A stretch of DNA of 64,000 nt from Candidatus Saccharimonadota bacterium (GCA_050436805.1 JBNQGE010000023.1:10606-74605), one strand, 5' to 3'. Shown: positions 2,504-38,924, numbered from the stretch's first letter. Translations and numbers: made by a program. Notes: generated by a model not told the origin, from the sequence alone.

Positions 2504-5500
2504 TTAGTTTGTGTAATCGGTTCCGTGGCCTGCATCGTCGGTTGGCCATGCGTACATACCGTTATCGGTAGTGGGGTACGCCTTGTTGTCGTCATTTGCG
2601 CGAGCCTGGATAAGGTTATTGCGCCAGGTAGACCCGTGGCTCATTCCGCCCCAAATGTTTCCATACAAGAAACCGTAGAGTTGGCTCAGCTCAGCCGAGA
2701 ACACGTTACCGGTCACCGTGATGTTCGTAGCATTGTTCTGCGTGCCAAATGCTAACGCATATCCCCATCCAGAGATGTAGTTATTGGTGACGCTGATGTG
2801 ATCGTAAACGCCGCTACCTTGCAAAGCCAAACCGTTGGTATTGCCCAGCGTAGCAATCGTGTTGTGATCTACAATCATCGGACCACCATTGCCCTCGCTT
2901 TGAGGACCGATACCATCGTGATGGTAAACATTGTTAGCATTGTCGGCAGCATCATGAATGTAGTTGTTGGTCCATGTAGAGGGCTGGCCAGGGAAGCCAG
3001 TTACGATTTCCATACCTGCGTTACCCCAGATATCATTGTGGTCCATTGTTGCCACTGATTCTTGCATAGTTGTGGCAATTTGCCATGATTGGTTGAATGG
3101 CGTGCCAGGTGCAGTGTGTGATGAGGACACCGTGCCGTTGTTGCCCGGAGGCGTTGCATACGACACCGGCTTAAAGGTGGTGTAGAGGAATTTGATCTTA
3201 TCTGGAGTGTAGATCTGCACGAGGTTATCGTTAGGGTTTGTTCCTTCGAATAAACATCCCACGAAGGTCAGATTCTTACCAAAGATGCCGACTTTTCCGA
3301 CGAAATGTTTGTAGGAAATCACACTGTTGTCAGGGAAAGTGATGCCCATGTAGTTGTTGGCGCTCATACCTGGCTGCCAGTCAGTCAGCTGACCAGGGTA
3401 TGCAGGGACACCCGTGCCACCGGCGTTGGCAGGAGTATGCTTGTAGCCAGTATTTGAGAAGTCTGGCCAGTAACTCGAGCCATCATTTGGTCGGCTAGAG
3501 ATTGCTGAACCACCAGAAGTAGGAGGCGTAGGTACGGTAATATCTGGAGTCTTTACGGTTGCCGCAAACGACTGTGCTGAAGCATTGCCAGCACCGTCGT
3601 AGGCACTCACTGTGTACGTGTAGGAAGTGCTTGCAGAAACAGTTCCATCACCGAACGAAGTAGTTGTACTGACAGCGATCTTTGATCCGTCACGGTAAAT
3701 GGCGTAACCTGCAACGGCAACGTTATCGGTGCTTGGAGCCCATGTCAGATTAACTTGATTCTCATTAACTGCGGTTGCCAGTAAGCCCGTTGGAACATTT
3801 GGTGCAGTCGTGTCGGCGGGGTTTGGTGTCTTTACGCTCACGGCATTGCTAGCAGGTGAGGTATTGCCCGCAGCATCTTTTGCTTCTATGGTGTAGGTAT
3901 ACGTAGTGTTCGCTACTGCGCTCATGTCGCTATAGGTAGTGCTGGTGGTAGTTGCGATAACGGCGCTATTGCGGAGCACTAAGTAACTAGCGACGGCAAC
4001 GTTATCGGTGCTTGGAGCCCATGTCAGATTAACTTGCGTGGGGCTCTTGGCAGTCGCCGAAAGACCGTTCGGCGCACTCGGTGGCGTCTGGTCAGGGCTC
4101 GTGAGCGTCGAGGCAGCAGTTGTTGAACTAGGCGCACTCATATTTCCGGCAAGGTCGTATGCTTCGACGTAGTAGGAATACGTAGTACTTGAAGCTAAGC
4201 CAGTATCGCTGTAGGTAGTGCCAGTAACGGTGGCTACTTTGATGCCGTTTTGGAAGACAGCATATCCCGTAACTCCAACGTTATCGGTGCTTGCGTTCCA
4301 ACTTAGGTTGATCTGCGTAGAGCTGGTACTGGTTGCCGAAACGTTGGTTGGCACCGAAGGAGCGGTCGTGTCAGTGGTTGGTGGAGGCACAGGAGGACCG
4401 GTCGGCGCTGGCGTTGGTGTCGGAGTCGCAGTAGAAGGCAGAATCTCAATAGCTGCCATATTCCAACGATCACCAGTTGGGGCGGTGTCATTGAGCACTA
4501 CAGATGTGCTGCTGACCGGTGTTGCGGCCGCTTGGCGCTGTACCCAGTAAGTATCACCAACAGAGGCAAGTACCTGATCAACAAGTACTTGGCCCGATCC
4601 AGTCGTTCGTGCTACAGCATGATCGTAGTCGTTACCCGCAGCCCATACCCATGCACCGTTGCGCGTTGTGGTTAGTGATACTTTTGGTGTACCACTGGTA
4701 GCGTTTGCCGCAGCTATCGCACCGTTTGTCGTAACGTCAGCACCCTTGAAGGCCGTAACTACCATCGAACCAGTAAACGAGCCGGACAATGTGGCTTTAA
4801 CTGCAGTCGCAGATAAGTGCGTTGGTGCCACAGCTTGCCAAATTTCGGTCGTACCACCTTGAGCATTGCTTCGCTGGCGCAGTGTCCAGGTTAGCCCACC
4901 ACCAGTGATCGCATTAACGGTAGCACCCTTGGTGGTACTGGGACCATCAGTGGTAACAAATGCTACGAGCAATTCATTACTATCAGAAGTAGCCAACATG
5001 GGCGACGTAATTGTCGTTGACGCCCCGCTTGGGTGCGCTATTACTTGTTGGTCAACGCTCAAACTCGCAACCGTAGGTGGTGTTGGAGTTGGTGAAGGCG
5101 TTGGCGTCGGTGGTGTTGGAGTCTCCGGCTTAAAAACAACATCAACCCAATAGTTGGTCGCTTTCCAGCCATTGGTTGGAAACGCGCTCGCGCCGTAGGA
5201 GTACACACCATCGGAGCCGCTCACGCCATCAGCCAAAGTGTGCAGCGACACATTGCCGATCTGAGTTGTGAGGCCGTTCAGCGTATCTGAATAGTGACCT
5301 GTATTGGTATGGTACGACACGACATATACCGTGTTGGCCGTAATATTCACAGGGCTAGAAAAGGTGGCTTCTTGCCAACCAGTGCTTGACTCGGCCGTAA
5401 AGGTTACACTCGCCAGGCGAGTGCCGGTGCTGGACCAAAGACTACCCGTATGCGTGCCAGTGTTAGCGGCACTCTTGTAAAAGCGCACGCCCGTAATTGT

Positions 5501-5743
5501 GCCGGCGACATCACTTTTAAATTTGAGCCCAAGTTCGACTGCTTGACCGTCAGCTGAATCGATCTGTGCAGGCGTACCCGAACTGGCAAAAAGGCTAACC
5601 GTATCGCTGCTAGCAAAACTGTGCGTCAGTACTACTGCGCCTACAACCGCAAAAACTGCAACGAATACCACCAATGGTATGCGATTTTTTAGTCCAGTTG
5701 CAATAGACGTCCGGCTGAATGATTTACGAGAGAAAAGTGCCAT
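2504..5743 (-). CDS. Large cell-surface protein: N-terminal anchor, DUF4082-like domain, Pro/Thr linkers, 3 fibronectin type III repeats, C-terminal beta-helix domain
   Basis: 1079 aa. Elements in order:
- an N-terminal TM segment;
- a DUF4082-like block (ELGLKFKSDVAGTITGVRFYKSAANTGTHTGSLWS..NYWVDVVF);
- PTPTP linkers;
- three ~90-aa repeats with (L/W)(S/T)W..STDNVGV/AV.GY;
- a beta-helix tail paralogous to 320..1513. Confidence 0.8.
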   Translation of the reverse strand: MALFSRKSFSRTSIATGLKNRIPLVVFVAVFAVVGAVVLTHSFASSDTVSLFASSGTPAQIDSADGQAVELGLKFKSDVAGTITGVRFYKSAANTGTHTGSLWSSTGTRLASVTFTAESSTGWQEATFSSPVNITANTVYVVSYHTNTGHYSDTLNGLTTQIGNVSLHTLADGVSGSDGVYSYGASAFPTNGWKATNYWVDVVFKPETPTPPTPTPSPTPTPPTVASLSVDQQVIAHPSGASTTITSPMLATSDSNELLVAFVTTDGPSTTKGATVNAITGGGLTWTLRQRSNAQGGTTEIWQAVAPTHLSATAVKATLSGSFTGSMVVTAFKGADVTTNGAIAAANATSGTPKVSLTTTRNGAWVWAAGNDYDHAVARTTGSGQVLVDQVLASVGDTYWVQRQAAATPVSSTSVVLNDTAPTGDRWNMAAIEILPSTATPTPTPAPTGPPVPPPTTDTTAPSVPTNVSATSTSSTQINLSWNASTDNVGVTGYAVFQNGIKVATVTGTTYSDTGLASSTTYSYYVEAYDLAGNMSAPSSTTAASTLTSPDQTPPSAPNGLSATAKSPTQVNLTWAPSTDNVAVASYLVLRNSAVIATTTSTTYSDMSAVANTTYTYTIEAKDAAGNTSPASNAVSVKTPNPADTTAPNVPTGLLATAVNENQVNLTWAPSTDNVAVAGYAIYRDGSKIAVSTTTSFGDGTVSASTSYTYTVSAYDGAGNASAQSFAATVKTPDITVPTPPTSGGSAISSRPNDGSSYWPDFSNTGYKHTPANAGGTGVPAYPGQLTDWQPGMSANNYMGITFPDNSVISYKHFVGKVGIFGKNLTFVGCLFEGTNPNDNLVQIYTPDKIKFLYTTFKPVSYATPPGNNGTVSSSHTAPGTPFNQSWQIATTMQESVATMDHNDIWGNAGMEIVTGFPGQPSTWTNNYIHDAADNANNVYHHDGIGPQSEGNGGPMIVDHNTIATLGNTNGLALQGSGVYDHISVTNNYISGWGYALAFGTQNNATNITVTGNVFSAELSQLYGFLYGNIWGGMSHGSTWRNNLIQARANDDNKAYPTTDNGMYAWPTDDAGHGTDYTN

Positions 5744-8239: not shown

Positions 8240-10069
8240 TTAACCCTCATCGATAAAACCACCACTTTGGTGCGCCCATAACGATGCATACAGGCCTTTG
8301 TGCCGGACGAGCTCTGCGTGTGTGCCGTCTTCGACAATCTGCCCATTATCAAGCACAATAATCCGATCCATTTTTTGAATAGTACTCAGGCGATGAGCGA
8401 TAACAATTGATGTCCGGCTTTTCATTAGTTCGTCGAGGGATGCCTGGATATAGTGCTCGCTCTCGCTGTCCAGGGCGCTGGTGGCCTCATCGAAAATCAG
8501 AATCGGGGCATCTTTGACAATCGCTCGGGCAATCGCCACGCGTTGCCGTTGGCCACCGCTTAGCTTGACACCACGCTCGCCAACTTTAGTGTCCAAGCCT
8601 TCGGGCAGGTTCTGCAATAGCTCACTAATGTGCGCTTTTTGGATAGCGTGCTTGATATTTTTAACGCTAGTTTGTGGCTTGGCGTAGGCAATATTCTCAC
8701 GGATTGACCTATGAAATAAATGAGAATCTTGGGGTACGTACGAAATGGCCTGCCTGAGCGAAGCTTTCGTTACCGTACTGATATCCTGGCCATCGATAGC
8801 AATGGCGCCGCCAGAAATATCTGCAAAACGCAATAGTAGCTGCGTGAGCGTGGTTTTGCCGCCGCCGCTCCGGCCAACAACTCCCACACGCTGACCGGCT
8901 GGAATATGCAGGGTAAGATGATCAAAAATCGGTTCGGCGTCTGGTTCATAGCGATAGGTCACATCTTTGAGGTCGACCACGCCGCCGCGCACAACAAGCT
9001 TTTTGGCAGTTGGCGCATCAAGCACCGTTGGCGCTGCCATAAGTATTTCGCTAATTGGCGCGGCATCCATTAGGGCGCCTTGGTAGGTTTGGACCATCGG
9101 CCCAAGCTCCACCAGCGCTCCGCTCAAACGCTGCAAATACGAAATTGCAAACACGACCAGACCCAAGCTAATCCTTCCGGACACCGCCAGCCATGCCGCG
9201 AGTCCAATGCCCACCACTTGCAACGTATTGATACTCCCAACCAGCTGAACGTAGTGCCGGCCAAACAGACTTATATTACGCTGGGCCGCTTGGCGCCACA
9301 CGTCCTGAACGCGCTCCAGTGATCGCTTTTCATATGCTTCTCCGGCAAATATTTGCACGGCAGCATGATTACTAATAACATCGCCTACGAACCCGTTGAG
9401 CCGATTGCCAGCATCCTTGCGAGCACGCCTGTAAGCCGACCTACTGCGCGAATCACGAAGCGTTTTAAAGGCAATTGCCACTACCATCACCAAAAACATA
9501 GCAGCCAACAACGGCGACTGCACAGCAATTACAAAAATGCCGGCCACCAGTGGCAAAACCAGATTGATGCTCCGCTGAAAAACGTCCTGAACCGTAGCAT
9601 ACCCATTGGTAAAAGCAATGACATTTCCGGTAAGTGATCCGCCCATAGCATTGGCATAGAACGCAGCGCTCTCGTAAAGCAAGCGATGCATAACCGTACT
9701 ACGGAGATAGTTCTGGGTTGGTGAGTCGAGTCGGGCAAAGCCGCGCAAACCAATTGCATTGCTCAAAGTCCCAACTAACACCGTAATTGCCGCTATTATA
9801 AGTGTCGACAGCAAACTACCACCCCAGACTAATGGCTGGCGCATGCCAACGAGGTCGATGGCATGCGCCAACATATAGGGTAGCGCCGTCCCAAAGCACA
9901 ATGCCGTACACGAAAACCCAGCAAGCACCACCAGTGCGGGGCCCTTGTGTTGGCGTACAGCCTTCGCATACTGCTGCATCGTGTATCGCTGCGTCGCCGC
10001 ATCTTTTTGCCCATCCGTAGCACGATGAATTTCTTGTTTTCTTACACCACGCCAAAAACGTACCGCCAT
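8240..10069 (-). CDS. ABC transporter, fused permease/ATPase (MsbA/exporter type)
   Basis: A six-TM N-terminal half followed by Walker A GRSGGGKTT, signature LSGGQRQR and Walker B ILIFDEATSALD. There is no C39 peptidase domain. Confidence 0.85.
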   Translation of the reverse strand: MAVRFWRGVRKQEIHRATDGQKDAATQRYTMQQYAKAVRQHKGPALVVLAGFSCTALCFGTALPYMLAHAIDLVGMRQPLVWGGSLLSTLIIAAITVLVGTLSNAIGLRGFARLDSPTQNYLRSTVMHRLLYESAAFYANAMGGSLTGNVIAFTNGYATVQDVFQRSINLVLPLVAGIFVIAVQSPLLAAMFLVMVVAIAFKTLRDSRSRSAYRRARKDAGNRLNGFVGDVISNHAAVQIFAGEAYEKRSLERVQDVWRQAAQRNISLFGRHYVQLVGSINTLQVVGIGLAAWLAVSGRISLGLVVFAISYLQRLSGALVELGPMVQTYQGALMDAAPISEILMAAPTVLDAPTAKKLVVRGGVVDLKDVTYRYEPDAEPIFDHLTLHIPAGQRVGVVGRSGGGKTTLTQLLLRFADISGGAIAIDGQDISTVTKASLRQAISYVPQDSHLFHRSIRENIAYAKPQTSVKNIKHAIQKAHISELLQNLPEGLDTKVGERGVKLSGGQRQRVAIARAIVKDAPILIFDEATSALDSESEHYIQASLDELMKSRTSIVIAHRLSTIQKMDRIIVLDNGQIVEDGTHAELVRHKGLYASLWAHQSGGFIDEG

Positions 10070-10395
10070 GGCAATCTCCTTTTATTGTTTTGTTGTTTAT
10101 TTTCGTCAAGAGACGATTGATCCAAGCCTCTCACAGCTTGCTTCAATCATAACACTCGTGCCTGGGCGACGCCACCCGCAATTTATTCTTGAAACTTTTT
10201 GAGTTTAACCGGAATATAATAGATATGACGAGTAGGAACCGTGCATCTCACACAAGATAGTGACAGCAGAAGATACCGCTGGCTGACGCAAAAGCTATCG
10301 TCGCTGCGCTCAAAAAATTGTAGAATAGTTACACAGTGCACCCTCGGGGCGCCTAATAACTAATCCGCCCCTCTACAAAAAGGAGTTGGCACTCG

Positions 10396-12429
10396 ATGAG
10401 TAGTCCAGAAGGTTTTGAAACATACACAATCCCAACAAGCCTTCTGGGCGCCCTCGGCGAAGGTGTCGAGCACCAGCAATCATGGGAGCTTTTTCAATCC
10501 ATCGAGGAAGACGCTCGCAAGTACCTCCTTGTCCAGTTCTACAACAAGGTAAAGGAACAGCCAGAAGCCTTTGGCAAAACGTCCCCACTCCACGAATCAT
10601 GGGATGTTCTAATGGAAATGGAACGGGACAAACCGGAAGTAGTTGAGTCCTTGTTAACGAGCCCAGCGACAGGCAGCTGGCTCAGTCACACCCTTCGACG
10701 GCTGCAGGGCGAGAGAAGCGACAGGCAGGCACCATTATGGGCCGACGTTGGATATTTTAACGCGCTCGTGGCCGGATTTGCACATCACAGCGGCATGGAT
10801 TTTACCCTAACCGTACCAACAATTGACGGCAAGGCATTTTTGCCGCAAGTAGGTAGCGCCATGTTGTCAGATCGCTCTTCATACGGCACGGCTACCGTTG
10901 AATCTCGGGATAACGTGCTGCACATTAACAACAGCCGCACATCTCTCGAAATCACGGATACAGCGATGCCCAACACCAATTGGCGGCCTGTCATACGGCA
11001 TGAGAGCCGAGCCAACTTGGCGACAACCTCTAAGGACATTGCGCTTACCGTTACTCTGGACGATGCCGACCCCTACAACACAGCAACACCCTACGAACTA
11101 TCGGCCGAGGAAACAACAGAATGGCACACCATGCTTGATGAAACATGGAACCAGCTGGCCGCAGTCCACCCCCGCTTTGCCGAGGGTCTCAGCCGCCGTT
11201 TGTCCGTTATTGTGCCGTCGGCTCGTCGAAAACAGTTTGAAGCCAGCAGCTCGTCAGCCGACATCAACATCGGGAGTATCGAGATGTCATTGCCAACCAA
11301 CCCGATTGAGGCAGGGGAGATGATCGTCCACGAATCCTGTGGTCATGGCGTGCTAAATAGTGTACTTGGAGCCTTGGAGCTTATCAAAAATCCGCCCACG
11401 CGAGCAGATCAGTATGCACCCTGGCGCGATGACCCAAGGCCCTTAATGGGCCTGCTGCACGGCATTTACTCATTTTCGAGAGTCGTGGATTATTACACAA
11501 CACAACGAAGCCACCTGCCTGACGGTACTCCACGCGCCGACCTTGCCGACTTTGAACGTTTGCTGTGGGGTCAGCAGGTACAGACCGCCGCACATGCCTT
11601 GAGTCGCCGATTAGTCGTTAACGACTCCGCTCGACTTGTCACCAACCCTCTCGATAGGCTCACGGGCATGTACACTCAGGAGGACGGTATTATTACCATG
11701 TCGGCAGACTCCTACTCTAGAACGCGCGGAACTCTCGGGGGCACCCACAGAAATACCTTTCTTGAAGCCATGGATACCCGCGTGAAACAGTATGAGGTAT
11801 TGCCGACAACACACTCAAAAATATCCCCAACAGTTGCAGCACATGTTCGGCTGGCCATCGCAGACCACAAGGCGCTCTGGAATGCATATCACAGAAGACC
11901 CACGCCTGAGGATGTTTCCATGTTTGTCAATGCTTGGACGATGCCCGCTCATGTCGAGATGCCCAAGCTAACAACTATCCGCCCTATATTACAGCCAGAC
12001 CCTAGCGCCTGCCGGCTGAATGCCAGGGCTATACTGGCTCGACACCACATTCTTGATCCAGAGGGTTTTGAACAAGCTTTTCACGAAAGCGAGTCCATGC
12101 GAGATAAAGCTGATCGGGCACTCATCTTGGGTAAGCTATCGACAGCTGAGGCATTATACGAAGGCATGCTCGAAGCGAACCCCCTGGATAAGCCTGCATT
12201 CATTGGCTTAGCATTATCCACGCTGCAAGGCGATCCAGGGTTCGCGGCAAAGGCAATGACTCTGGCAAGTACCGTAATTGACATTCAAGCTAGACTTATA
12301 GACACAACGGGGAGAGCACCTCATTACTCCAAGCTACTGGGATGGCTCCTGGAGCCCAGCATCGAGGTCCAGACAGGTTGGTATGATTACCTGGACTTAA
12401 GTCCTATGAACCCTCGGAACCAGCTTTAA
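10396..12429 (+). CDS. HEXXH-motif-domain protein (FxsC-like / aKG-HExxH peptide-modifying family) with a TPR-like C-terminal tail
   Basis: AAAGGAG SD upstream. The central block ..GEMIVHESCGHGVLNSVL..YAPWRDDPRPLMGLLHGIYSF.. matches my memory of the 'HEXXH motif domain' family (metal motif followed by aPWR.DPRP..GLL.G.Y.F). Here the two His residues are spaced HExxxH. Confidence 0.55.
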   Translation: MSSPEGFETYTIPTSLLGALGEGVEHQQSWELFQSIEEDARKYLLVQFYNKVKEQPEAFGKTSPLHESWDVLMEMERDKPEVVESLLTSPATGSWLSHTLRRLQGERSDRQAPLWADVGYFNALVAGFAHHSGMDFTLTVPTIDGKAFLPQVGSAMLSDRSSYGTATVESRDNVLHINNSRTSLEITDTAMPNTNWRPVIRHESRANLATTSKDIALTVTLDDADPYNTATPYELSAEETTEWHTMLDETWNQLAAVHPRFAEGLSRRLSVIVPSARRKQFEASSSSADINIGSIEMSLPTNPIEAGEMIVHESCGHGVLNSVLGALELIKNPPTRADQYAPWRDDPRPLMGLLHGIYSFSRVVDYYTTQRSHLPDGTPRADLADFERLLWGQQVQTAAHALSRRLVVNDSARLVTNPLDRLTGMYTQEDGIITMSADSYSRTRGTLGGTHRNTFLEAMDTRVKQYEVLPTTHSKISPTVAAHVRLAIADHKALWNAYHRRPTPEDVSMFVNAWTMPAHVEMPKLTTIRPILQPDPSACRLNARAILARHHILDPEGFEQAFHESESMRDKADRALILGKLSTAEALYEGMLEANPLDKPAFIGLALSTLQGDPGFAAKAMTLASTVIDIQARLIDTTGRAPHYSKLLGWLLEPSIEVQTGWYDYLDLSPMNPRNQL

Positions 12430-12634
12430 GAACACTCGGTATAGCATTGATGCGTTCGACACCAGCCATACCAGGCAAGTGGTTGTCGTAGGCGTCCATA
12501 AGTTCTACCATGCTGCCAAGAGGCATGGTAAGTCGAGGGATGGTTGTTTCGGCGGAAACTTCCTCGAGATTTGGCGCTCCACTCTCTACAACTTCATTAT
12601 CTACAGAATAAAGGTTTTCATATACTAAAGACAT
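12404..12634 (-). CDS. 76-aa acidic peptide, candidate precursor peptide (copy 1)
   Basis: TAAGGGGG SD 8 nt upstream of the ATG. It is a paralog of 12677..12910. Its 3' end overlaps the 3' end of the HEXXH gene by 26 nt (convergent). Confidence 0.6.
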   Translation of the reverse strand: MSLVYENLYSVDNEVVESGAPNLEEVSAETTIPRLTMPLGSMVELMDAYDNHLPGMAGVERINAIPSVLKAGSEGS

Positions 12635-12676
12635 GCGCGGTGCCCCCTTAATGTTTCAATTTTAGCGTAACAATCT

Positions 12677-12910
12677 CTATGAGCCACTGGAGCCAGCCTT
12701 ACGGAAACTAGGAGTAGCATTAACCTGCTCAACGCCGTCCATGCCCGGCAAGTGGTTGTCGTAGGCGTCCATAAGTTCTACCATGCTGCCAAGAGGCAAG
12801 CCAAGTCGAGGGATGGTTGTTTCGGTAGCAACAGGTTCAAGCTCTAATGCTCCACTTCCTAGAGCTTCCTCACCTTCCGCAAAATAAAGGTTTTCATACG
12901 CTAAAGACAT
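12677..12910 (-). CDS. 77-aa acidic peptide, candidate precursor peptide (copy 2)
   Basis: I place the start at the internal ATG 12910, preceded by AAGGGGGG, the same SD context as copy 1. About two thirds of residues are identical to copy 1, and the core PLGSMVELMDAYDNHLPGM is invariant. Confidence 0.6.
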   Translation of the reverse strand: MSLAYENLYFAEGEEALGSGALELEPVATETTIPRLGLPLGSMVELMDAYDNHLPGMDGVEQVNATPSFRKAGSSGS

Positions 12911-12938
12911 ACACTGGCACCCCCCCTTAATTGCTTTC

Positions 12939-12947
12939 ATTCTAACA
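12939..12947 (-). promoter_or_regulatory. Possible extended -10 promoter (TGTTAGAAT) for the twin-peptide operon
   Basis: TGnTAGAAT lies about 29 nt upstream of ATG 12910. I see no good -35 element. Confidence 0.35.
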
Positions 12948-13529
12948 TAAGCGTGTTCATACAAACACAACGACATGTCAAAAACCAACGTTCCAACTTT
13001 AGTGATACACTACTAGCATATTTATAAGAACACAATATGAAATACGGACTACCCCCACACGAATCAAATGGTCTTCTAAGGCGCCTCGACGCGATGCCCG
13101 AAGGATTTATCTTGGGACTTCCGGTAACAGAGGACGACATGGTAGTCAGGATCAAAACGCTGCAGCCGTTTCGCTTAGAGCTCCTTCGCTTGCCGAACTA
13201 ACGAGTCCGCAGCGAGCGGAAGAGTCAGCTTCGCTGGTTGTCCCAGATTGGCATATGCTTCCTACCGAAAGTCCGACACGAAGAGTTCCCTGCGAGTTAG
13301 TCCTGCCACAGCAAGAACGATTTGCCGAGTCATTTGATCGACTTATGCAAACGTCCAAGGGTCAGGAATGGTTTCTTGGCGCAGGCTACGAAACCGATAT
13401 TGAAGCCTGCGAAGACAGGGCCAAATTTTTTAGAGTCTACCCGCCAGTTGGTCGTTTTGTGGGAATGAGAGAAGAAATATACCAAGCTTCGTCCATGTAC
13501 GAACTTTTCTTACTCTAGAAGTTGACCAT

Positions 13530-14189
13530 CTAGTCGAAATGGCCCTTTGCCATGGGTGCCGCTTGGGTGGCAACGGTCAGTGCGCCTAATTTGAACTGGA
13601 TTCTTGTGGCACGCAATCGAAACATCTCTTTATGTGCCTTGTGACCAAATCGGGTCGCATCCGACATTCCGCCCTTAGAAAATACCATAAACGGCAGTGA
13701 GAAATCGTCGTCGTCGAATCGCGGAACATCTCCATACGCGGCGGCACGCACTTCGAAATCTGGATGATAATCGATAATTGTGTCGAGTACATGTTGGCGA
13801 TCCGCACGCACCCGATCCTTTGCTGTCGTACCCATGATAAGCGGGAAATACATCGTAAAATTATTCGTAAGCGGGTCAACATCAAAAATCGGATCGTCTT
13901 CCAATTGAGCCGTTACCAACGAATGACGTGAAGACATTTGAGCAATCGCACGATTGGCCACCAAAGCCAAAAGTCCTGGTTGCTGACCATATGATTCATC
14001 AATTTCTTGCAACGCAGCATACTGGTATTCATTAAAAATTGGCAGTGCCAACGGTGGAAGTTCCGTGAATGGAAACATGCGCTGTGTTTGCAGTCGCGCG
14101 TCGCTAAGCCGGACGCTACCTTCGTCGATCGCCGGACGCTCTACAAAAAGGGTTGATACAAGTTGTTGCGAGGGTTGTTCTTCAATCAT
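13530..14189 (-). CDS. Hypothetical protein
   Basis: 219-aa ORF with no motif I recognise. Confidence 0.45.
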   Translation of the reverse strand: MIEEQPSQQLVSTLFVERPAIDEGSVRLSDARLQTQRMFPFTELPPLALPIFNEYQYAALQEIDESYGQQPGLLALVANRAIAQMSSRHSLVTAQLEDDPIFDVDPLTNNFTMYFPLIMGTTAKDRVRADRQHVLDTIIDYHPDFEVRAAAYGDVPRFDDDDFSLPFMVFSKGGMSDATRFGHKAHKEMFRLRATRIQFKLGALTVATQAAPMAKGHFD

Positions 14190-14330
14190 AGTACCGTATG
14201 CCGCCTTTACCTATCTCAAATATAAAGCATTAGCGCATTTCAGGGAAGTAGTCGAGGGTTGCTAGCTCTCACTACCATATTCTTGTTGAATGTGTGCCCC
14301 CTGAGCAAAAGAATGCCCAGGGGGCGGAGA

Positions 14331-14885
14331 CTACGCGGCGAGGCCGAGATGCTGCAGCACCGTAGCCCACGTCAGGACAGGCACGAGACCGTCCGTCGAC
14401 ACGAGTTCCGGCTGCTCCTGCGGGCCGAACAAGTACCGCGTGCCGACATGAGGCATGTGGCGCAGAACGTCGGCGCGGTCATCTGCGAAGTGGGTCAACG
14501 GACCGCCCGGGAGGCTGTCCGCAATCGGACCTTTTTCGTAGCGCTCGCGACAAAAGCGCAGGTTCTCGGGGCGGAAACGTGTCCGTTCGTAGAAGCTGTT
14601 GTGCCCCAGCCACAAGCGGGTTTTGGCGTCCGACTTCACCTTCGAAATGATGAAGACGTTCTGCGGACCGAACGCGCTCGTTATGGCCCTGATGGCCTCG
14701 AACGCTCCAGGCACCGCTGTGGTGCGTAGGAAATTGTCGCTGCGGAACGACGTGTCGGTGTTGTCGTTCTTGATGCGATCAATGATCACACCGCCAACGT
14801 CCAATCCAATGCGTACGTGCACTGTTTCTCCCTTGATCTCTCTGGCGTCCTCAACCAGGATAGCATGGTGGCCGCCGGCGATCAA
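14331..14885 (-). CDS. GC-rich hypothetical protein (weak HAD-like N-terminus)
   Basis: 184 aa. Third codon positions are visibly G/C-rich compared with the neighbours. IGLDVGGVI resembles a HAD motif I only loosely. Confidence 0.45.
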   Translation of the reverse strand: MIAGGHHAILVEDAREIKGETVHVRIGLDVGGVIIDRIKNDNTDTSFRSDNFLRTTAVPGAFEAIRAITSAFGPQNVFIISKVKSDAKTRLWLGHNSFYERTRFRPENLRFCRERYEKGPIADSLPGGPLTHFADDRADVLRHMPHVGTRYLFGPQEQPELVSTDGLVPVLTWATVLQHLGLAA

Positions 14886-14897
14886 AAGAGCCCCAAT

Positions 14898-15326
14898 CTA
14901 CAACGCAACAGAGAGGCCGTTGAGCGCAATGGTGTTGCTTGGCACGAGTATTGTCGTCGCCATGTTCTCAGATGGCGACGTGTTAGTTTCTGTGCCATCC
15001 GCTAGACACAGGATATCACCGCCCAAATGGGCCGTGTCTGCCATCGTAACCGCCGAGGCCTGCGGCATATCTAGTGCTTCGATAGTTTGCGAGTGTTCAG
15101 CCGATAATCCGTACCCGGTACTAAGCGCTATGAGTGCTACCGCGCCAGCACCCTGGCCACGTCGACGACCATTAAGTCGCGATGGCTTGCCCTCGTGACA
15201 TACGTTTCGTGCGTTTGGCTCCAATCTGTCGTAGCCCCTCTGGCCGTACGGTGTGGTTTTTTGTTGGCCCCCATTGGGACCAAACAGCTTGCCCCAAGCC
15301 TTTGCTTCGTCTTTACACTTTGTCAT
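14898..15326 (-). CDS. Hypothetical protein with one predicted TM segment
   Basis: A perfect AGGAGG SD lies 6 nt upstream of the ATG. The gene sits 12 nt upstream of 14331..14885. Confidence 0.5.
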   Translation of the reverse strand: MTKCKDEAKAWGKLFGPNGGQQKTTPYGQRGYDRLEPNARNVCHEGKPSRLNGRRRGQGAGAVALIALSTGYGLSAEHSQTIEALDMPQASAVTMADTAHLGGDILCLADGTETNTSPSENMATTILVPSNTIALNGLSVAL

Positions 15327-15480
15327 GTCAGCCTCCTATTCGTAGAAGTTACGTGTGATCTTCTATGCTCATAGTCTAGGCCGCGGGCAGTAGCGCTGTC
15401 TGTCTCCCAGATCACACTAATACGCGTGTGATTTTGTAGTATTAGCACGAGCGCTTTGTGTGTATAATGCACCATAGAAT

Positions 15481-16389
15481 ATGGCTGCTAACAGAGAAGG
15501 AAATCCTCCTGAGATTGTACCTAGCCCATCTCCCAACGATGTGCGTGTGCGGTCTGTGGCCCAACGTGCCGTGGCAGAAACTACTAACCTTGGGGATGTT
15601 CGAATACCTTTTAATACGCAGTGGGAGATGGAAGATTTCGCGTATCTTGTTGGCATAGATGAAGGCTGGCATAGTCTGACGGATGGCCAAACGCCGAGCC
15701 TCGATGAGATGGAGACCACGGCGGCCCATGAGCGCATCACGAGCATACTTGAACACCCGCTATTCCCGGACCATGTCGTCGGCTACGCGTTTAGCCATCT
15801 CCATTTGAAGGAAGGGTGGGTACGGCCGGGGCAGATACTTAGTCGCCTCTGCGACACCTACTACGCGATACCTTACGCACATTTCACACAGCTCAATGCT
15901 ACGCTCCGCACACTCACGGACCAGGAACGTTTAGAGGGTGCCAAGGGAGCTTACCGAGTCACGGAGCACTGCCGACAAGAAGAATTCTGTCCCGAACTTG
16001 GCGAAGAGTTTTTTGATTGGACAGTAGACCAGCTTAAGCAGCGCGGTGGCCGGGGCAAGCCCAAATACCTTGCCTTGGCGTACTTTGGCGAGACGATCAC
16101 ACCTCACGAATTCTGGGCTGGCATGCAGGCGCTGGGCCAATGGCAACACGCCGGAAGATTCGACTTCTCAAGGCTTGACGGCAAGCTATGTCTGCCGAAC
16201 TACGAAGATCCCAAAAAAACTGCATTTCTCGACCTTCTTGATGGCAAATTGAAACAGCAAGAACCAGGCCACGACCCCATCAAGCTGGAAAAAGCCATGC
16301 GTGCTGCAGGTGTTGTCCGGGGACCTCGGCGACTCAGCAACAGAAATCATTGGATAGGCGGCAGCGAGGAGCCTCGTGAAACCGATTGA
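15481..16389 (+). CDS. Hypothetical protein
   Basis: 302-aa ORF that overlaps the next gene by 14 nt. A TATAAT box lies about 14 nt upstream of the ATG with no SD, so the transcript may be near-leaderless. Confidence 0.5.
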   Translation: MAANREGNPPEIVPSPSPNDVRVRSVAQRAVAETTNLGDVRIPFNTQWEMEDFAYLVGIDEGWHSLTDGQTPSLDEMETTAAHERITSILEHPLFPDHVVGYAFSHLHLKEGWVRPGQILSRLCDTYYAIPYAHFTQLNATLRTLTDQERLEGAKGAYRVTEHCRQEEFCPELGEEFFDWTVDQLKQRGGRGKPKYLALAYFGETITPHEFWAGMQALGQWQHAGRFDFSRLDGKLCLPNYEDPKKTAFLDLLDGKLKQQEPGHDPIKLEKAMRAAGVVRGPRRLSNRNHWIGGSEEPRETD

Positions 16390-17962
16390 GCTCCGGCCCA
16401 TTGAGAACGTTGATCCCCGTGCAGAGTCTGGGATCGACGCTACAAATATTTCCTTGCTATTTGAAGAGCTCGGCCAGCAATCCACACCAGAAAGAACTAC
16501 CCTTGTAACCGTGGAAGACATGCAGAGTGGCATCGTGCCAACAGAAATGCTCCCCACCTCAATGTCTGCCCAGCGCGACCAGACTCCGCCAGTAAAAATC
16601 ATCGGTGATAACACGCTCGAAATAGGCGGACAAAAGGTAACGTTAGGACGCTCCGAGCTTCGTGTTTTTAATCTTCTCCTACTCAATCCAGAGGACTCTG
16701 TGCATTGCGGCAGTGTTTGCGAGAATCTAGAAGTTAGCAAAAGAGTGGCCCTGGTAGCGTTAAACGGCGTTACCACTAAGTGCAACCTGGAAGATGTCGA
16801 ACCTATCATTCTCCGAGGCTATCAGCCACCGCAGCGTCAGCGAATAGTTTACCAGCTCAATCCAGAACAATCGTTCGTAGATGAGCGCCTCAAATTTGGC
16901 ACCGAGCGCAGAGACATCCTGAGCGCCATGTGCAAAAAATATGCGGACGACCCTCGTGTCTTGGCAGGGCTACAGGATTTTGTACCTGCTGGACTATCAG
17001 TTGCTGATTTGCCATCTTACCGTTTGTATCGAAGACAGAAGGCTGCCATCCCCCGGATATCCGAAGCAGAACAGGCTTTATCAGTACGTCAACTTGATGA
17101 GGTCATCGAATGCGTTCTGCAGCAGCGCGATAGCGAAGATCAACACATTCGTGCAGTGATCGCCGCTAACAAGCTCTGCTTTTCGATGCTGGGGCTTGCC
17201 GATTACATTACAAACAAGTTTGTTAGTCGGATGAACACCGGTACGTGGAACGACCTTTACGGATCAACTGACGACATTCTCCAGTCGGCAAACATTGCAC
17301 TCATTGAAGCAATATATACCTACGAATCGACAAAGGGATCATCGCTGGTGGGTTTTGTGGGTACGGACATCGATTTTGCGCTCCGGCATGGGCGCCTTAG
17401 GGAACGACGACATGCTGACGGTATGACAAGACTAGAACTAGAAAAACACATCGGCGAACTCGTTTCCCGGGAAGCCGCAAAGGACGATACACTTCCGATG
17501 CCCGTATTAAAGTCGCGCCGGAAGCATCTCGACGAGGATCTCGAAGCGTCTTTGCACGACCACATGGACAAAAGTCTCTACATTGATGGTCTCGATACAG
17601 TTATTAGCGAAACTACCGCCCGACGACTTAGTAAAATTATTTTTAGGTCAACTATGCTTCGTCCTATAGAAAAATTTGCCCTGAGTATGATGTTTGGCGT
17701 ATATGATCCAGCGTTCGCAGGAACACTATTCACCGTTCAGGAGAACGGCAAGACGTTTGTGTATGACGAGCATCTTGAGCAAAACCTTATTTTCCGGGAA
17801 GGCATATCTCCATGGTTGTTTTGTCGGTATTTCGGCATCAGCCAAGCCGACGCAGAAGTGATCCAAGCCGATGCGTTGGAAAAAGCACGCAATACTGTGG
17901 TTTCAACGCTCTCAGACTACGAAGAAGGCCAAAGGTGGGCAGACTGGATGTGGCAAGCTTAA
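16376..17962 (+). CDS. Sigma-70-family-like protein with a long N-terminal extension containing a winged-helix-like segment
   Basis: Region-2-like SANIALIEAIYTYESTKGSSLVGFVGTDIDFALRH and region-4-like RPIEKFALSMMFG...YFGISQADAEVIQADALEKAR. The N-terminal VTLGRSELRVFNLLLLNPEDSV resembles an OmpR-type wHTH. Confidence 0.5.
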   Translation: MKPIELRPIENVDPRAESGIDATNISLLFEELGQQSTPERTTLVTVEDMQSGIVPTEMLPTSMSAQRDQTPPVKIIGDNTLEIGGQKVTLGRSELRVFNLLLLNPEDSVHCGSVCENLEVSKRVALVALNGVTTKCNLEDVEPIILRGYQPPQRQRIVYQLNPEQSFVDERLKFGTERRDILSAMCKKYADDPRVLAGLQDFVPAGLSVADLPSYRLYRRQKAAIPRISEAEQALSVRQLDEVIECVLQQRDSEDQHIRAVIAANKLCFSMLGLADYITNKFVSRMNTGTWNDLYGSTDDILQSANIALIEAIYTYESTKGSSLVGFVGTDIDFALRHGRLRERRHADGMTRLELEKHIGELVSREAAKDDTLPMPVLKSRRKHLDEDLEASLHDHMDKSLYIDGLDTVISETTARRLSKIIFRSTMLRPIEKFALSMMFGVYDPAFAGTLFTVQENGKTFVYDEHLEQNLIFREGISPWLFCRYFGISQADAEVIQADALEKARNTVVSTLSDYEEGQRWADWMWQA

Positions 17963-18437: not shown

Positions 18438-19508
18438 GTGACGAGCGTTATGCTGTTTGACCTAGTAGACACACTACAAAAGAAACGGCGACTTTTATTT
18501 GTCGTGGCGTTTATCAGTATCGATTTTTGGCTCCTAACATTCTTCTGCCAAGTACTGCAAACACACCGTTCGAACATTGCCGCTCATATACATACTTCCG
18601 AACTTGCGCTGACTCAAGTTCAATATCAAAACGGCGCGCTCACAAGCGGCACCATCACCGATAGTATGGGCCACCTTGTTACCGTTTTAGAAATTAGGGT
18701 CTTGCGCACCACGGTGTCGAGTGCAGATGGCATCACCAAAGCCGAGCATGGCCTACAGCTTGGTGCCCGAACGACGCTCCATGCCATAAACACTGGAGCC
18801 GTCGCTACGGTCCATGCGGTCGGGTATGGCATTGGATTTACATTGCGCACGATTGGTCAAATCATCCTATTTATTTGGCGCGTGGTGACATTCCCCTTTG
18901 TGGCAATCGGGCACGGAGTAGAGCATGTGTTCGGAGCTACAAGTAGCAGCCTAGCTTCTGTTATTCAGCCAAAGAATACGGCGAACGTGCCGGTCATCAC
19001 GCCCGAGCAAGCCCAGCAAGCTACGTTAATTCAGAAAGATACGCTTGCCGTTACACCGGTCAAACCCACCGGGTCGGGCGGCGCCTGCGATAGTGGGGCA
19101 GGTAACGGCGGCTATCCTGTAGATTGGTGCAATGCACGTATGGATACGATGCAGACGGTTTCTTACAGTAGCGATCACATCAACCGCGAGTGCACATCGT
19201 ATGCTTATTGGTATTTCACAACCATCGAAGGCCACACCAATTTTTACGTTACGGGCAACGCCAACCGCTGGGCGCGCACCTCAAATTATCCAGCGCACGC
19301 CGCGCCAGCAGTCGGTGGTATTGCTGTAGAAACCGGCGGATACTACGGCCATGTCGCTATCGTGCAGGCATTGCCGGGCCAAACGTACGATGGCAAAGTC
19401 GTGCCCGATGGCTACGTGCTTGTCAGTGAAATGAACTACGACTGGCAAGGTCACTTCCGTTATTCGTACAGCCCACTCAGTAAGTTTTCGTCATACATTT
19501 ACCCATAA
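18438..19508 (+). CDS. Membrane-anchored CHAP-domain peptidoglycan hydrolase/amidase
   Basis: The C-terminal ..NRECTSYAYWYF..GGYYGHVAIVQAL.. pattern gives the CHAP Cys/His residues. The N-terminus has TM segments. Confidence 0.7.
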   Translation: MTSVMLFDLVDTLQKKRRLLFVVAFISIDFWLLTFFCQVLQTHRSNIAAHIHTSELALTQVQYQNGALTSGTITDSMGHLVTVLEIRVLRTTVSSADGITKAEHGLQLGARTTLHAINTGAVATVHAVGYGIGFTLRTIGQIILFIWRVVTFPFVAIGHGVEHVFGATSSSLASVIQPKNTANVPVITPEQAQQATLIQKDTLAVTPVKPTGSGGACDSGAGNGGYPVDWCNARMDTMQTVSYSSDHINRECTSYAYWYFTTIEGHTNFYVTGNANRWARTSNYPAHAAPAVGGIAVETGGYYGHVAIVQALPGQTYDGKVVPDGYVLVSEMNYDWQGHFRYSYSPLSKFSSYIYP

Positions 19509-21344: not shown

Positions 21345-21435
21345 TTAGCTGTTTTACCATCTTCGTAGCGCGTTGACAAGCTTTGACGCGCTACGTTATA
21401 GTGGAGTTCATATACGAGCAGCCTGCGCGATAACT

Positions 21436-21984
21436 ATGATTACCATATTTTTTGAATCCCACTCCACAACCAAAGACAACGAAGCCGGAACGGCAGCCGG
21501 CTGGTATGATGTAGAACTTTCCGATCTTGGCAGGAGCCAAGCCAAGGAAATGGGATCACGCTATAAAGGTCAGTCGTTTGATGCGATATTTTGCTCCGAT
21601 TTGCAGCGTTCCTATAAAACCGCGCAGCTGGCGTTTGGCAACAAATATCCGATCATCCAGGATGTGCGGTTGCGGGAATGCAACTACGGCGATCTGAACC
21701 GTGCTCCCAAAGAAAACATTGAGGCTATGAAGGCTGACGCTGTTGAAATACCATTTCCACACGGCGAAAGCTACCGCGATACATCAGCTCGTATGAAAGC
21801 TTTTTTGGAAGATCTGCGCAAAAGCTACGACGGCAAGACAGTGATGATCATTGGTCATCGAGCCACACAATACGGTCTGGAAGAACACATTACAGGCATC
21901 GAACTTGCAGACGTTGTGACTGCTCCATGGCAGTGGCAGCCAGGCTGGAAATACGAACTGCAGGGTGGCGAATCCGCTCGGTGA
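21436..21984 (+). CDS. Histidine phosphatase (PGAM-like) family protein
   Basis: The start is placed at MITIFFESHSTT.. Family-typical motifs: LSDLGRSQA, SDLQRS, GHRAT. Confidence 0.6.
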   Translation: MITIFFESHSTTKDNEAGTAAGWYDVELSDLGRSQAKEMGSRYKGQSFDAIFCSDLQRSYKTAQLAFGNKYPIIQDVRLRECNYGDLNRAPKENIEAMKADAVEIPFPHGESYRDTSARMKAFLEDLRKSYDGKTVMIIGHRATQYGLEEHITGIELADVVTAPWQWQPGWKYELQGGESAR

Positions 21985-25355: not shown

Positions 25356-26030
25356 ATGGAAAATTATCTTACTTCTCGTAAAATTCTCACGTATGATGAC
25401 CTAAAAGCTCCCGAGTCTGGCACGAGTTCAGAGCCGCTTGTCGATGTTCGAACATATGACCCGCGAATTGTGGCGCAATACATCAAGGACGACATGCGCA
25501 AATATACCGGTGATCAGATTTACGTGCGAGATACACTTGCACAAAAGCTCGGTAACGTTAGTGCTGAACTTGCTGCATCAAATTTACGTCTTAAGGTTGT
25601 GTATGGCTATCGACACCCCGAGGTGCAGCAAGCATATTTCTCAAAACGACAAACAGAGATCCTTACCGAATTTCCCGATCTTTCGGGTGACGACTTAGAG
25701 CGATACACACACAACTTTGTTGCCGTTCCTGATGTAGCTGGCCACCCGGCAGGTGCAGCTGTGGATCTCACGATTATCGACATGTCCGGTGATGACCTAG
25801 ACATGGGAACGGGTATCGCCGACTACAGTGATCCGCAGCTCATTCGCACCTTTGATTCGCGCCTTTCTAATCAACAGCAAAATAATCGTTTAGTTCTGCA
25901 CGATCTGATGATAGACCAAGGCTTTGCACCATTTTATGGAGAATGGTGGCACTTTTCGTATGGCGACCGAGAATGGGCAGCCTTTAACCATAAAAAAACA
26001 GCACGTTACTGTGCTGTCGAATTAACGTAG
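25356..26030 (+). CDS. M15-family D-Ala-D-Ala dipeptidase-like (VanX/DdpX-like) metallopeptidase
   Basis: YGYRHPEVQQ.., ..VPDVAGHPAGAAVDLTI.. (SxHxxGxAxD-like) and ..GEWWHFSYGD. Confidence 0.7.
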   Translation: MENYLTSRKILTYDDLKAPESGTSSEPLVDVRTYDPRIVAQYIKDDMRKYTGDQIYVRDTLAQKLGNVSAELAASNLRLKVVYGYRHPEVQQAYFSKRQTEILTEFPDLSGDDLERYTHNFVAVPDVAGHPAGAAVDLTIIDMSGDDLDMGTGIADYSDPQLIRTFDSRLSNQQQNNRLVLHDLMIDQGFAPFYGEWWHFSYGDREWAAFNHKKTARYCAVELT

Positions 26031-26039
26031 TAAGGTCAG

Positions 26040-26083
26040 GTGGAGGCTACTCGGTAAGTGCTTGTAGCACGAGTAGCCTCCAC
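26040..26083. terminator. Perfect 14-bp hairpin between convergent genes (no U-tract)
   Basis: GTGGAGGCTACTCG-(16 nt)-CGAGTAGCCTCCAC. Confidence 0.45.
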
Positions 26084-26117
26084 ATGGCGAAAGGTTAGCG
26101 GTGTCCTGCGGGACGGA

Positions 26118-26711
26118 TCAGGACGGAAGCTGGGTAAGCGCGTCGGCGATGTCACCGAAGAGGTAGACCCGCTGTGTGCTCTCGGACCCATTGACGACCA
26201 CCTGGTCGGTGTCGCCCACGTTCTGTAGCTCGGGGATCTCCTGGGCACCGATCTTGCGGTACAGGTGGATCGAGTTCGAACCCATCGCGGCAGTACGGAA
26301 CGCGTAGTGCATGTCGCCGCGATGGCAGATGGTGAGCATCCGATGGCGGACCAGCTCGTAGGCGATACCACGACCGCGATGGGTGTTAATCACGCCCAGC
26401 TCAGACATGTACCAGGTCTTCTGCAGGTCTCCGGTGTAGTGCTCCGAATCGCTGAGAAACCTCTGCACCTCGTCCGGCGCCTTGAGAACAGGCAGGGCGC
26501 AGCCGAAGCCGACGACCTTTTCGTTCTCGATTGCCAGGATGACGATGCCGTCCTCGACGTGAGGGTGCCAGACGTGGTCAAGCACGTCGTCGTCGCTGTA
26601 CTGCTCGTTGTAGGGTGGACCGCCGAAAGCCTCCTGGTAGGCCCGAATGAAGCCGAGGCGGTCACTGGGAAGGGTGGTTTCGTCGCTGAGAACAGGCAGA
26701 TACCTGGTCAA
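26118..26711 (-). CDS. GNAT-family N-acetyltransferase (GC-rich)
   Basis: The acetyl-CoA motif-A region ..LGVINTHRGRGIAYELV.. is present. The gene overlaps the upstream gene by 4 nt. Confidence 0.65.
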   Translation of the reverse strand: MTRYLPVLSDETTLPSDRLGFIRAYQEAFGGPPYNEQYSDDDVLDHVWHPHVEDGIVILAIENEKVVGFGCALPVLKAPDEVQRFLSDSEHYTGDLQKTWYMSELGVINTHRGRGIAYELVRHRMLTICHRGDMHYAFRTAAMGSNSIHLYRKIGAQEIPELQNVGDTDQVVVNGSESTQRVYLFGDIADALTQLPS

Positions 26712-27466: not shown

Positions 27467-27751
27467 GATCGTGCTCCTAACTTTTTTGTCTTGATTTGGC
27501 TAACCTAGCCGCCGTAATTTTAGCATGGATGTCAATGCATACACAAGCATAGGGGTTTTCCAAAATACTGCCCAGCTTACGCTCATTTTATAATTCCTAT
27601 AAGTATATACTAATGGCATATCTGCGCTATTGTAATTGTCGTAAATTTGACTTATACCCATTTTAATTTATAATTTCGCGCATGGTTCATTGAGTCAACC
27701 GACTCAGTACATTGAGAACCATAGCAGATTGAGAGAGGAACAAACACAGTC

Positions 27752-29071: not shown

Positions 29072-29111
29072 CACTCGTTCGTCACGAAAGTGACACCATC
29101 TCCACTCTGCG

Positions 29112-29161: not shown

Positions 29162-29162
29162 T

Positions 29163-38923: not shown

Positions 38924-38924
38924 G

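Follow-up and report, generated by a model that had tools for sequence, protein, structure and literature searches.

Oxygenases of the aKG-HExxH type depend on Fe(II) and alpha-ketoglutarate (aKG), hold the iron with an HExxH motif, and hydroxylate His, Asp, Phe, Gln and Pro residues of the precursors of RiPPs (peptides made on ribosomes and modified after translation) (PMC13060819; PMC12636437). One of them, ChlH, depends on a cyclophane installed beforehand (PMC12636437). In Pseudomonas, the aKG-HEXXH enzymes PflC and PosC act on Gln as hydroxylases and also cut off, by oxidation, an ARMD tail conserved at the C-terminus of their substrates; cleavage of this tail requires a small residue at its first position (PMC12636437). 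Kaur, Burroughs, Iyer and Aravind (2020) grouped a zincin-like 'MPTase' with a fast-diverging peptide carrying a conserved C-terminal motif as a 'peptide-processing system'; in many cases they found it linked to conflict systems of the AP-ATPase/TPR or VMAP kind (PMC7159879). The window analyzed in this work, a stretch of 64,000 nucleotides from a Candidatus Saccharimonadota bacterium (GCA_050436805.1 JBNQGE010000023.1:10606-74605), contains at positions 10396-12910 a gene for a divergent aKG-HExxH-type enzyme and two small peptide genes that converge on its 3' end. On balance we lean towards reading the locus as a minimal two-component RiPP-type module of the FxsA or "peptide-processing" type, in which the enzyme oxidizes the peptides' C-terminal region. 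The enzyme gene has the following features.

10396..12429, + strand: divergent aKG-HExxH-type peptide oxygenase, 677 amino acids (open reading frame (ORF) listing and reading of the DNA; Shine-Dalgarno (SD) sequence AAAGGAG upstream)
11329..11346, + strand: metal-binding motif HESCGH (H312-E313-S-C-G316-H317), with a one-residue insertion relative to HExxH (alignment)
11416..11442, + strand: family-invariant block APWRDDPRP, residues 341-349 (invariant in the homolog alignment)
12013..12360, + strand: C-terminal TPR-like helical-repeat domain, residues ~540-655 (matches to TPR profiles from PDB; stacked helices in the AlphaFold2 (AF2) model)

By its sequence and its modeled fold, the 677-residue protein is a true relative of the aKG-HExxH peptide oxygenases. 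It matches the NCBIfam model TIGR04267 (IPR026337, 'aKG-HExxH-type peptide beta-hydroxylase') over residues 247-404 with 107.7 bits, against a curated cutoff of 40, and an E-value of 6.4e-31. A profile built from 25 homologs retrieves from PDB the proteins SjiH (22nu/22ob, E 9e-87) and ChlH, the HExxH domain of ChlBH (8s5f), and HMMER alignments show that the enzyme shares PWRxDxRP with both crystallized proteins. The AF2 model of the enzyme (pLDDT 82.3, pTM 0.84) leads to the same two structures in Foldseek, with E 2.7e-16 and a target-normalized TM score of 0.80 for SjiH (22ob) and E 6e-6 and 0.68 for ChlH (8s5f). No literature on SjiH was found. GenBank holds an identical protein (P0001, from a metagenome-assembled genome (MAG) of Candidatus Saccharibacteria) under the name 'aKG-HExxH-type peptide beta-hydroxylase [Candidatus Saccharibacteria bacterium]'. 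A Pfam scan of the enzyme returned zero matches, including to Peptidase_M49 and every other peptidase family. An earlier reading of this DNA, the original prediction, had placed the large protein in the HEXXH-domain family of peptide-tailoring enzymes, and the hidden Markov model match, the structural relatives and the modeled fold all agree with that placement. It had also pointed to the block APWRDDPRP..GLLHGIY some 35 residues after the metal motif: the block is present, with GLLHGIYSF at residues 352-360, but the distance measures ~29 residues. An N-terminal catalytic part of ~500 residues is followed by the TPR-like domain. The 25-homolog profile matches consensus and designed TPR proteins in PDB at positions ~520-590, and the model contains stacked helices at residues 543-652 with pLDDT 90-98. 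The TPR-like domain is possibly a peptide-binding module.

The metal site sets the enzyme apart from most of its family. Its two histidines are spaced i/i+5, against i/i+4 in a canonical HExxH motif, and because of this noncanonical spacing we classify the enzyme as a variant, not as a typical member of the aKG-HExxH family. The longer spacing, already remarked upon in the original prediction, has proved to be a property of a whole clade. H312, E313 and H317 are invariant over the 25 homologs, G316 is invariant inside the clade, and HESCGH sits in a confidently predicted helix (residues 303-329 of the AF2 model). All close relatives of the enzyme (P0002-P0010, 34-40% identity) have HE-Y/S-C/S/G-G-H, while homologs outside the clade, at ~30% identity, have HExxH and are almost all actinobacterial. 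An exhaustive HMMER search of 1.84 billion representatives puts the size of the family at ~3,000 members. Only seven of these representatives belong to the clade, scoring 751-914 bits against 333 bits for the next-best sequence; two of them (P0072 and P0073) are additional to the set above and carry HEYCGH and HEYGGH. In a six-frame census of all fetched loci, with HESQHH counted as canonical HExxH plus an extra His, HE-x-x-G-H was confined to the 11 clade loci together with P0072 and P0073, and ~155 other loci had HExxH. Within the sequences compared HE-x-x-G-H is thus a fixed character of the clade (12/12 known sequences) and not a one-off.

The clade is monophyletic in a neighbour-joining tree, which is distance-based and midpoint-rooted. 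At least two clade members, both derived from MAGs, carry Saccharibacteria or Saccharimonadales labels. The GC content of clade loci is 47-52%, against ~70% in actinobacterial loci, and outside the clade the enzyme family is almost entirely actinobacterial. Recent transfer from actinobacterial enzymes paired with GSxGS-tailed peptides (see below) was considered as an origin of the clade and set aside, these enzymes not being its nearest neighbours in the tree, although a distance-based, midpoint-rooted tree is weak evidence on this point. A longer His spacing has a precedent elsewhere: HEXXGH is the zinc site of dipeptidyl peptidase III (DPP III) of the M49 family, which is likewise zincin-type and also has HEXXH orthologs (PMC5805324). 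By analogy with this precedent, an insertion between the histidines need not abolish metal binding. Under the reading proposed here, the metal site of the enzyme would still bind Fe(II) and aKG.

The second component of the module is a pair of small genes on the opposite strand.

12404..12634, - strand: precursor-like peptide 1, 76 amino acids, with an acidic N-terminus, a leader-like motif TIPRLTMPLGSMVEL and the tail AGSEGS-COOH (ORF and SD; P0055 at NCBI, hypothetical protein)
12677..12910, - strand: precursor-like peptide 2, a paralog of 77 amino acids counted from ATG, with the tail AGSSGS-COOH (ORF; P0056 at NCBI)
12407..12424, - strand: invariant C-terminal tail of peptide 1 (A-G-S-E-G-S), antisense to the last codons of the enzyme
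12680..12697, - strand: invariant C-terminal tail of peptide 2 (A-G-S-S-G-S) (peptide alignments)
12643..12650, - strand: SD-like sequence TAAGGGGG of peptide 1 (sequence reading)
12921..12929, - strand: SD-like sequence TAAGGGGGG of peptide 2 (sequence reading)
12404..12429, no strand assigned: convergent 3'-3' overlap of 26 nt between the enzyme gene and peptide gene 1 (coordinates)

These small convergent ORFs are genuine genes. Both are called by PGAP, and nearly every orthologous peptide gene is preceded by an SD-like sequence. The peptides share 70% identity, and comparison of the paralogs gives a dN/dS (non-synonymous to synonymous divergence) of 0.19/0.63 = 0.30; the peptide genes are under purifying selection. 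For peptide 2 a longer ORF with a TTG start reaches 12988, and the ATG start has an SD sequence and fits the 77-residue call of NCBI. Two tandem paralogous genes of 76 and 77 codons downstream of the enzyme had been reported earlier, together with the 26-nt overlap of the first of them with the enzyme gene, and the coordinates hold exactly; the SD contexts, described then as identical, share the core TAAGGGGG but are otherwise only similar. Neither peptide has a family match in Pfam or in NCBIfam (the latter searched to E<=10), and a word-based homolog search with peptide 1 returned only itself and its paralog. Homologs of the peptides surfaced through the analysis of gene neighbourhoods and, later, through a profile search. 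In the AF2 model of peptide 1 alone the chain is mostly disordered, with a single helix at residues 40-51 predicted at low confidence (pLDDT 53).

The association of the peptide genes with the clade enzyme is constant. Each of the 11 clade loci examined has a single small gene or a pair of them converging on the 3' end of the enzyme gene; pairs occur in the window, L003 and L163. The genes overlap in seven of the loci, by 26 nt in the window and L164, 4 nt in L002 and L166, and 32 nt in L165, L167 and L168; the remaining four (L001, L169, L003 and L163) have gaps of 1-88 nt instead. The convergent, overlapping layout is conserved, and unusual for precursor genes. The other neighbours vary among the 11 loci, with no conserved radical-SAM enzyme, protease, transporter or other partner. 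In particular, no Radical_SAM match was obtained in the window ORFs scanned between 320 and 26030 or among the genes called at the remaining 10 clade loci. In the reverse direction, peptides found by profile alone, independently of the enzyme, adjoin an enzyme homolog in L169 (convergent, HEYCGH) and L171 (co-directional, HEFRH). Since peptide genes always accompany the clade enzyme, a minimal enzyme-plus-precursor system is the best reading of the locus, as had been suggested from the lack of a radical-SAM partner in the window.

The last residues of the enzyme (...SPMNPRNQL) are encoded antisense to the tail of peptide 1 and are disordered in the model (pLDDT <50). Clade members with a 32-nt overlap, compared at the C-termini of P0006, P0009, P0010 and P0073, have similar enzyme ends of the form ...S-x-x-x-x-PG-x, which are apparently imposed by the peptide tail on the opposite strand. 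A scan of positions 10000-13600 for sigma-70 promoters and terminators gave counts no higher than the shuffled expectation, with none near the peptide genes. An Rfam search over 9800-13700 gave one chance match to a long non-coding RNA at 22 bits (cutoff 48), and RNA folds over the convergent junction showed no special structure (z -1.1 and +0.76). In none of these scans did a signal emerge that speaks to a coupling of expression between the convergent genes, as the original prediction had suggested.

The 13 clade peptides are alike in three respects: their N-terminus is acidic, a hydrophobic motif occupies the centre, and they end in an invariant [A/G]-G-S-x-G-S-COOH tail. Peptide 1 can be aligned with 12 orthologous peptides, and the leader-like motif in the middle of the alignment takes the form P-I/L-x-x-L-x-x-L/V-x-L-x-x-L/I. 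The only invariant stretch is the C-terminal tail. A profile of the peptides searched against 5.8 billion proteins retrieved 17 sequences, all 17 of which end in the [A/G]-G-S-x-G-S tail, and a regular expression for the tail, run over 162 loci and the window, found elsewhere just a few spurious ORFs. The original prediction had singled out the central segment rich in Asp, Asn and His, ELMDAYDNHLPGM, as the key invariant part of the peptides. This segment is identical in the two window paralogs, but it is mostly a lineage-specific insertion beside the leader-like motif, and its conservation does not extend to the other 11 clade peptides; the conserved parts are the leader-like motif and the tail. 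At the DNA level, codons 28-57 of both peptide genes (window 12460-12550) are nearly identical, with dS of 0.11, against ~0.8 in the N-terminal third of the genes and saturation in the C-terminal third. The drop in dS from ~0.8 to 0.11 suggests gene conversion in the central third, or else a constraint at the nucleotide level, and does not point to a conserved core.

Peptides of comparable architecture accompany the actinobacterial homologs. These enzymes are ~620 amino acids long, have the same TPR-like C-terminus, and usually follow a co-directional upstream peptide gene of ~60-90 codons. The partner peptides have a leader of the form E-S-x-L-V-D-L-x-G-V-S-L-x-x-L-R and short conserved tails. 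A simple regular expression finds an adjacent leader-bearing peptide at ~86 of 157 non-clade, mostly actinobacterial, homolog loci. Most of these tails read x-R-x-D (SRFD, QRLD, GRAD); FxSxx occurs in some of the peptides and GGSxGS at three loci, besides several other types. The model TIGR04268 ('FxSxx-COOH cyclophane-containing RiPP peptide') matches the FxSxx-tailed peptides with 40-42 bits (cutoff 28), and the GRAD and QRLD peptides score below its threshold through their leader. The tail class of a peptide is the same as that of the nearest neighbour of its enzyme in 68 of 73 cases, against a mean of 26 and a maximum of 40 under permutation. The agreement fits a co-evolution of enzyme and tail, with a contribution from shared ancestry.

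A GSxGS-COOH tail is also present in four actinobacterial, Streptomyces-type loci (L064, L113, L139 and L171). L064 encodes a 1280-residue partner with NB-ARC and TPR, and a partial gene in L171 shows the TPR part of such a partner. The actinobacterial GSxGS peptide P0067 has only a weak precomputed match to PF27839. Further tail types occur across L006-L162: G-x-N-S-COOH, long tails ending in HVV, LIG or RIG, tails ending in PLITC, and QR(G/E/P). The variety exceeds the three motifs (FxSxx, RxD and acidic) spelled out in the portions of PMC7159879 considered here. Streptomyces peptides ending in ...NPAERFD have a weak match (E 0.054) to NF038399, a PosA-type Os1348 NHLP model. One more GSxGS peptide comes from a phage-like contig of 69% GC (JGI 3300044977 Ga0454591_0000017, L170:6001-6369): P0071, of 122 amino acids, ends in WLPNLTNLPLGEL...TTAGSSGS-COOH, and its C-terminal 53 residues are 38% identical to actinobacterial GSxGS-tailed peptides. 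Around its gene, small ORFs follow one another in the same direction, together with DnaB and a T4-type RNA ligase (PHROG match), and no HExxH enzyme was found within 6 kb of it. P0071 might serve a phage as a mimic or decoy of the peptide.

Within the two-component module, the small peptides are very likely the substrates of the enzyme, and the chemistry is probably oxidative rather than hydrolytic. It is about as likely as not that the tail region is the site acted upon. The enzyme would dock on the central leader-like motif of the peptide, possibly with participation of the TPR-like domain in recognition, and docking would put the peptide's C-terminal region at the iron centre. There the enzyme may hydroxylate a side chain near the tail, just upstream of it or in it. 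Alternatively, in a PflC-like reaction, alpha-hydroxylation of the first tail residue (Ala or Gly) would lead to loss of the tail and leave a C-terminal amide. Chemistry at or next to the tail is favoured because the tail is the sole invariant stretch of the peptides and begins with Ala or Gly. By analogy with PflC, tail removal is the most specific hypothesis, and side-chain hydroxylation just upstream is equally possible.

Several observations weigh against this proposal. The His spacing is changed at the very centre of the metal site. None of the kinds of residue that the family is known to beta-hydroxylate up to now (His, Asp, Phe, Gln, Pro and Asn) occurs in the tail. The analogy with PflC extends to the position of the tail and the size of its first residue only, the GSxGS tail differing from ARMD and xRxD. 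No leader protease or exporter is conserved across the clade neighbourhoods examined. The test of tail class against phylogeny is confounded by the relatedness of the species. Finally, the homology between the leaders of clade and FxsA-type peptides is weak: hhalign, run on 13 clade against 80 actinobacterial peptides, pairs the clade mid motif with LVDLxxVSLxxLR of the actinobacterial leader at a probability of 42% (P 2.6e-4).

An unlikely alternative to oxidation is hydrolysis, in which the enzyme would be a zincin-type metallopeptidase that clips the tail or the leader, its HE-x-x-G-H acting as the HEXXGH zinc site of DPP III does. The fold has been described as zincin-like, and PflC itself hydrolyzes truncated substrates at the site where it otherwise acts oxidatively (PMC12636437). 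Peptide cleavage was also the activity first predicted for FxsC-like 'MPTases', by Kaur et al. 2020 (PMC7159879), and the pattern in the clade is that of the M49 zinc motif. All characterized members of the family, however, are Fe/aKG oxygenases, the clade retains the family-specific PWRDDPRP block, and the Pfam scan gave neither an M49 nor any other peptidase match.

Oxidation might also take place elsewhere in the peptide. The model implied by the original prediction, beta-hydroxylation of Asp, Asn or His in ELMDAYDNHLPGM with the tail serving as a recognition or follower element, appears improbable to us, and to about the same degree as hydrolysis. It draws on the proven action of ChlH on Asp and His and on the hydroxylation of Asn in a PosA variant (PMC12636437); moreover, the segment is the same in both paralogs and coincides with the only helix predicted, at low confidence, in the peptide. 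The segment is, however, largely the lineage-specific insertion described above, without conservation in the 11 other clade peptides. The identity between the paralogs goes with the low dS of 0.11 and fits gene conversion, and the flanking part of the segment aligns to the actinobacterial leader motif.

A role of the module between species may be considered as a long shot. Saccharibacteria are obligate epibionts of Actinomycetota. The enzyme family is otherwise almost entirely actinobacterial, and [A/G]G[S/T]xGS tails stand beside NB-ARC/TPR genes in Streptomyces-type loci. Saccharibacteria-type loci keep the enzyme and the peptide with no receptor, and the tailed protein of the phage-like L170 comes with no enzyme. 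On these grounds the epibiont, and perhaps phages, might make a processed GSxGS peptide that imitates or jams a peptide signal of the host, and HE-x-x-G-H may tune the chemistry. NB-ARC/TPR (AP-ATPase) proteins have been proposed as sensors of such peptides in conflict or cell-death systems (PMC7159879).

Least probable of all is that the small ORFs are not substrates, but regulatory, antisense by-products of the enzyme 3' region, or partner or inhibitor proteins, with the true substrate elsewhere: RiPP precursor genes do not usually converge on and overlap another gene, and the peptides match no family model, yet their genes are under purifying selection, the tail is invariant at the protein level while the overlapping enzyme C-terminus is unconserved and disordered, the overlap is absent at four loci, and actinobacterial homologs have co-directional peptides of the same architecture.

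Beyond the two-component module, a transporter gene lies divergently upstream.

8240..10069, - strand: MsbA-like ABC exporter gene, probably outside the module (ABC_membrane and ABC_tran domains)

The gene is where the original prediction had put it, but its suggested role as exporter of the product is not sustained. An MsbA-type gene is adjacent to the module in one of the 11 clade loci, and one other locus has an unrelated ABC-2 pair; the ABC gene was rejected as a dedicated exporter because the other 10 loci do not keep it beside the module. The encoded protein falls below the cutoff of every equivalog model and has no peptidase domain. The gene stands in line with ddl and a protease gene, and a housekeeping role is therefore more likely. 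PADLOC, run on the enzyme and its neighbours, returned generic ABC matches only, and no NB-ARC/AP-ATPase-TPR or vWA-MoxR (VMAP) genes are found among the window neighbours or at the other clade loci.

On the other side of the peptide genes, four successive ORFs at window 13530-17962 (219 and 184 amino acids on the minus strand, 302 and 528 on the plus strand) have no family in Pfam, NCBIfam or PADLOC; the 528-residue product has a very weak similarity to sigma-factor region 2 (E 0.003-0.1). Genes for a CHAP-domain protein, a histidine phosphatase (His_Phos_1) and an M15 D-Ala-D-Ala peptidase (window 18438-19508, 21373-21984 and 25356-26030) reappear close to the module, no more than a few kb away, in several clade loci (the window, L001, L164 and L166). 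This loose synteny suggests that the clade hosts are related organisms. A protein of 1079 amino acids with DUF4082, three fibronectin-III domains and an RGI-lyase-like beta-sheet domain, encoded at window 2504-5743 on the minus strand, is probably a large surface or adhesion protein. The GC content of the window is heterogeneous, with 0.56-0.57 at 26001-30000, 0.44-0.47 at 38001-52000 and a mean of 0.50.

The enzyme family, its pairing with small peptides and the GenBank annotation of the protein are already known. What is new is that the HE-x-x-G-H variant is fixed, that the peptides form an unannotated GSxGS-COOH precursor type, that the genes converge and often overlap in a conserved layout, and that a stripped-down pair without the partners present in actinobacteria occurs in Saccharibacteria-type genomes. 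Should iron bind at the HE-x-x-G-H site and the enzyme turn over, the recently recognized aKG-HExxH oxygenase fold tolerates the hexapeptide variant of DPP III, and nature would have provided an experiment on the way in which ligand spacing shifts the chemistry among hydroxylation, alpha-oxidation with cleavage, and hydrolysis. The GSxGS-COOH precursors, with their 17 matches in 5.8 billion proteins, are missed by standard peptide models, and the convergent arrangement of precursor and enzyme could escape genome-mining heuristics that look for co-directional genes. Peptide-modification systems are barely described in the ultra-small Saccharibacteria, and this module, being shared with the phylum that such bacteria parasitize, is a candidate for host interaction.

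Comparison with the described systems brings out both the kinship of the module and its departures. Like FxsA/FxsC and the systems of Kaur et al. (PMC7159879), it joins an HExxH 'MPTase' to a peptide conserved at its C-terminal motif, and the clade peptides bear a weak resemblance to FxsA-type peptides in an L-x-D-L-x-x-V-S-L-x-x-L leader-like element. GSxGS is not among the tail motifs spelled out in the portions of the paper considered here (FxSxx, RxD and acidic), the motif of the FtsH-associated fourth type lying outside this comparison. Unlike FxsA/FxsC, neither the window nor any of the 10 other clade loci has a gene for a radical-SAM/SPASM cyclophane synthase (FxsB) or for NB-ARC/AP-ATPase-TPR or VMAP partners. 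The peptide gene of the clade is convergent, and overlapping in the window, whereas fxsA-type genes are upstream and co-directional, and the window peptides have neither a TIGR04268 match nor F-x-S-x-x-COOH, their tails being AGSEGS and AGSSGS. With M49 DPP III the enzyme shares the HE-x-x-G-H pattern, and penta- and hexapeptide variants occur side by side within M49 (PMC5805324), but Pfam gives it no M49 match and the Foldseek results, headed by SjiH and ChlH, contain no DPP III. The resemblance to M49 is by analogy a precedent for metal binding only.

The nearest parallels are within the aKG-HExxH family itself. In common with ChlH, SjiH, BpmH and PesO, the enzyme passes the family model, has the fold, as modeled, and possesses the H/E/H ligands and PWRxDxRP, and like the ChlH-group enzymes it adjoins a small precursor-like peptide gene. 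It differs from that group in having HE-x-x-G-H instead of HExxH and in its Saccharibacteria-type host. Unlike ChlH, it has no cyclophane-forming partner in its module, and so cannot need a pre-installed cyclophane. Compared with the PflC/PosC system, the module has [A/G]GSxGS instead of ARMD as its tail, has no Gln run, and is not accompanied by an MNIO-nitroreductase, a GNAT or a transporter. ARMD-like x-R-x-D tails are found on the partner peptides of most actinobacterial relatives of the enzyme, and what the module shares with PflC/PosC is an invariant short C-terminal tail with a small first residue, Ala or Gly, and an enzyme of the same family that presumably depends on a leader.

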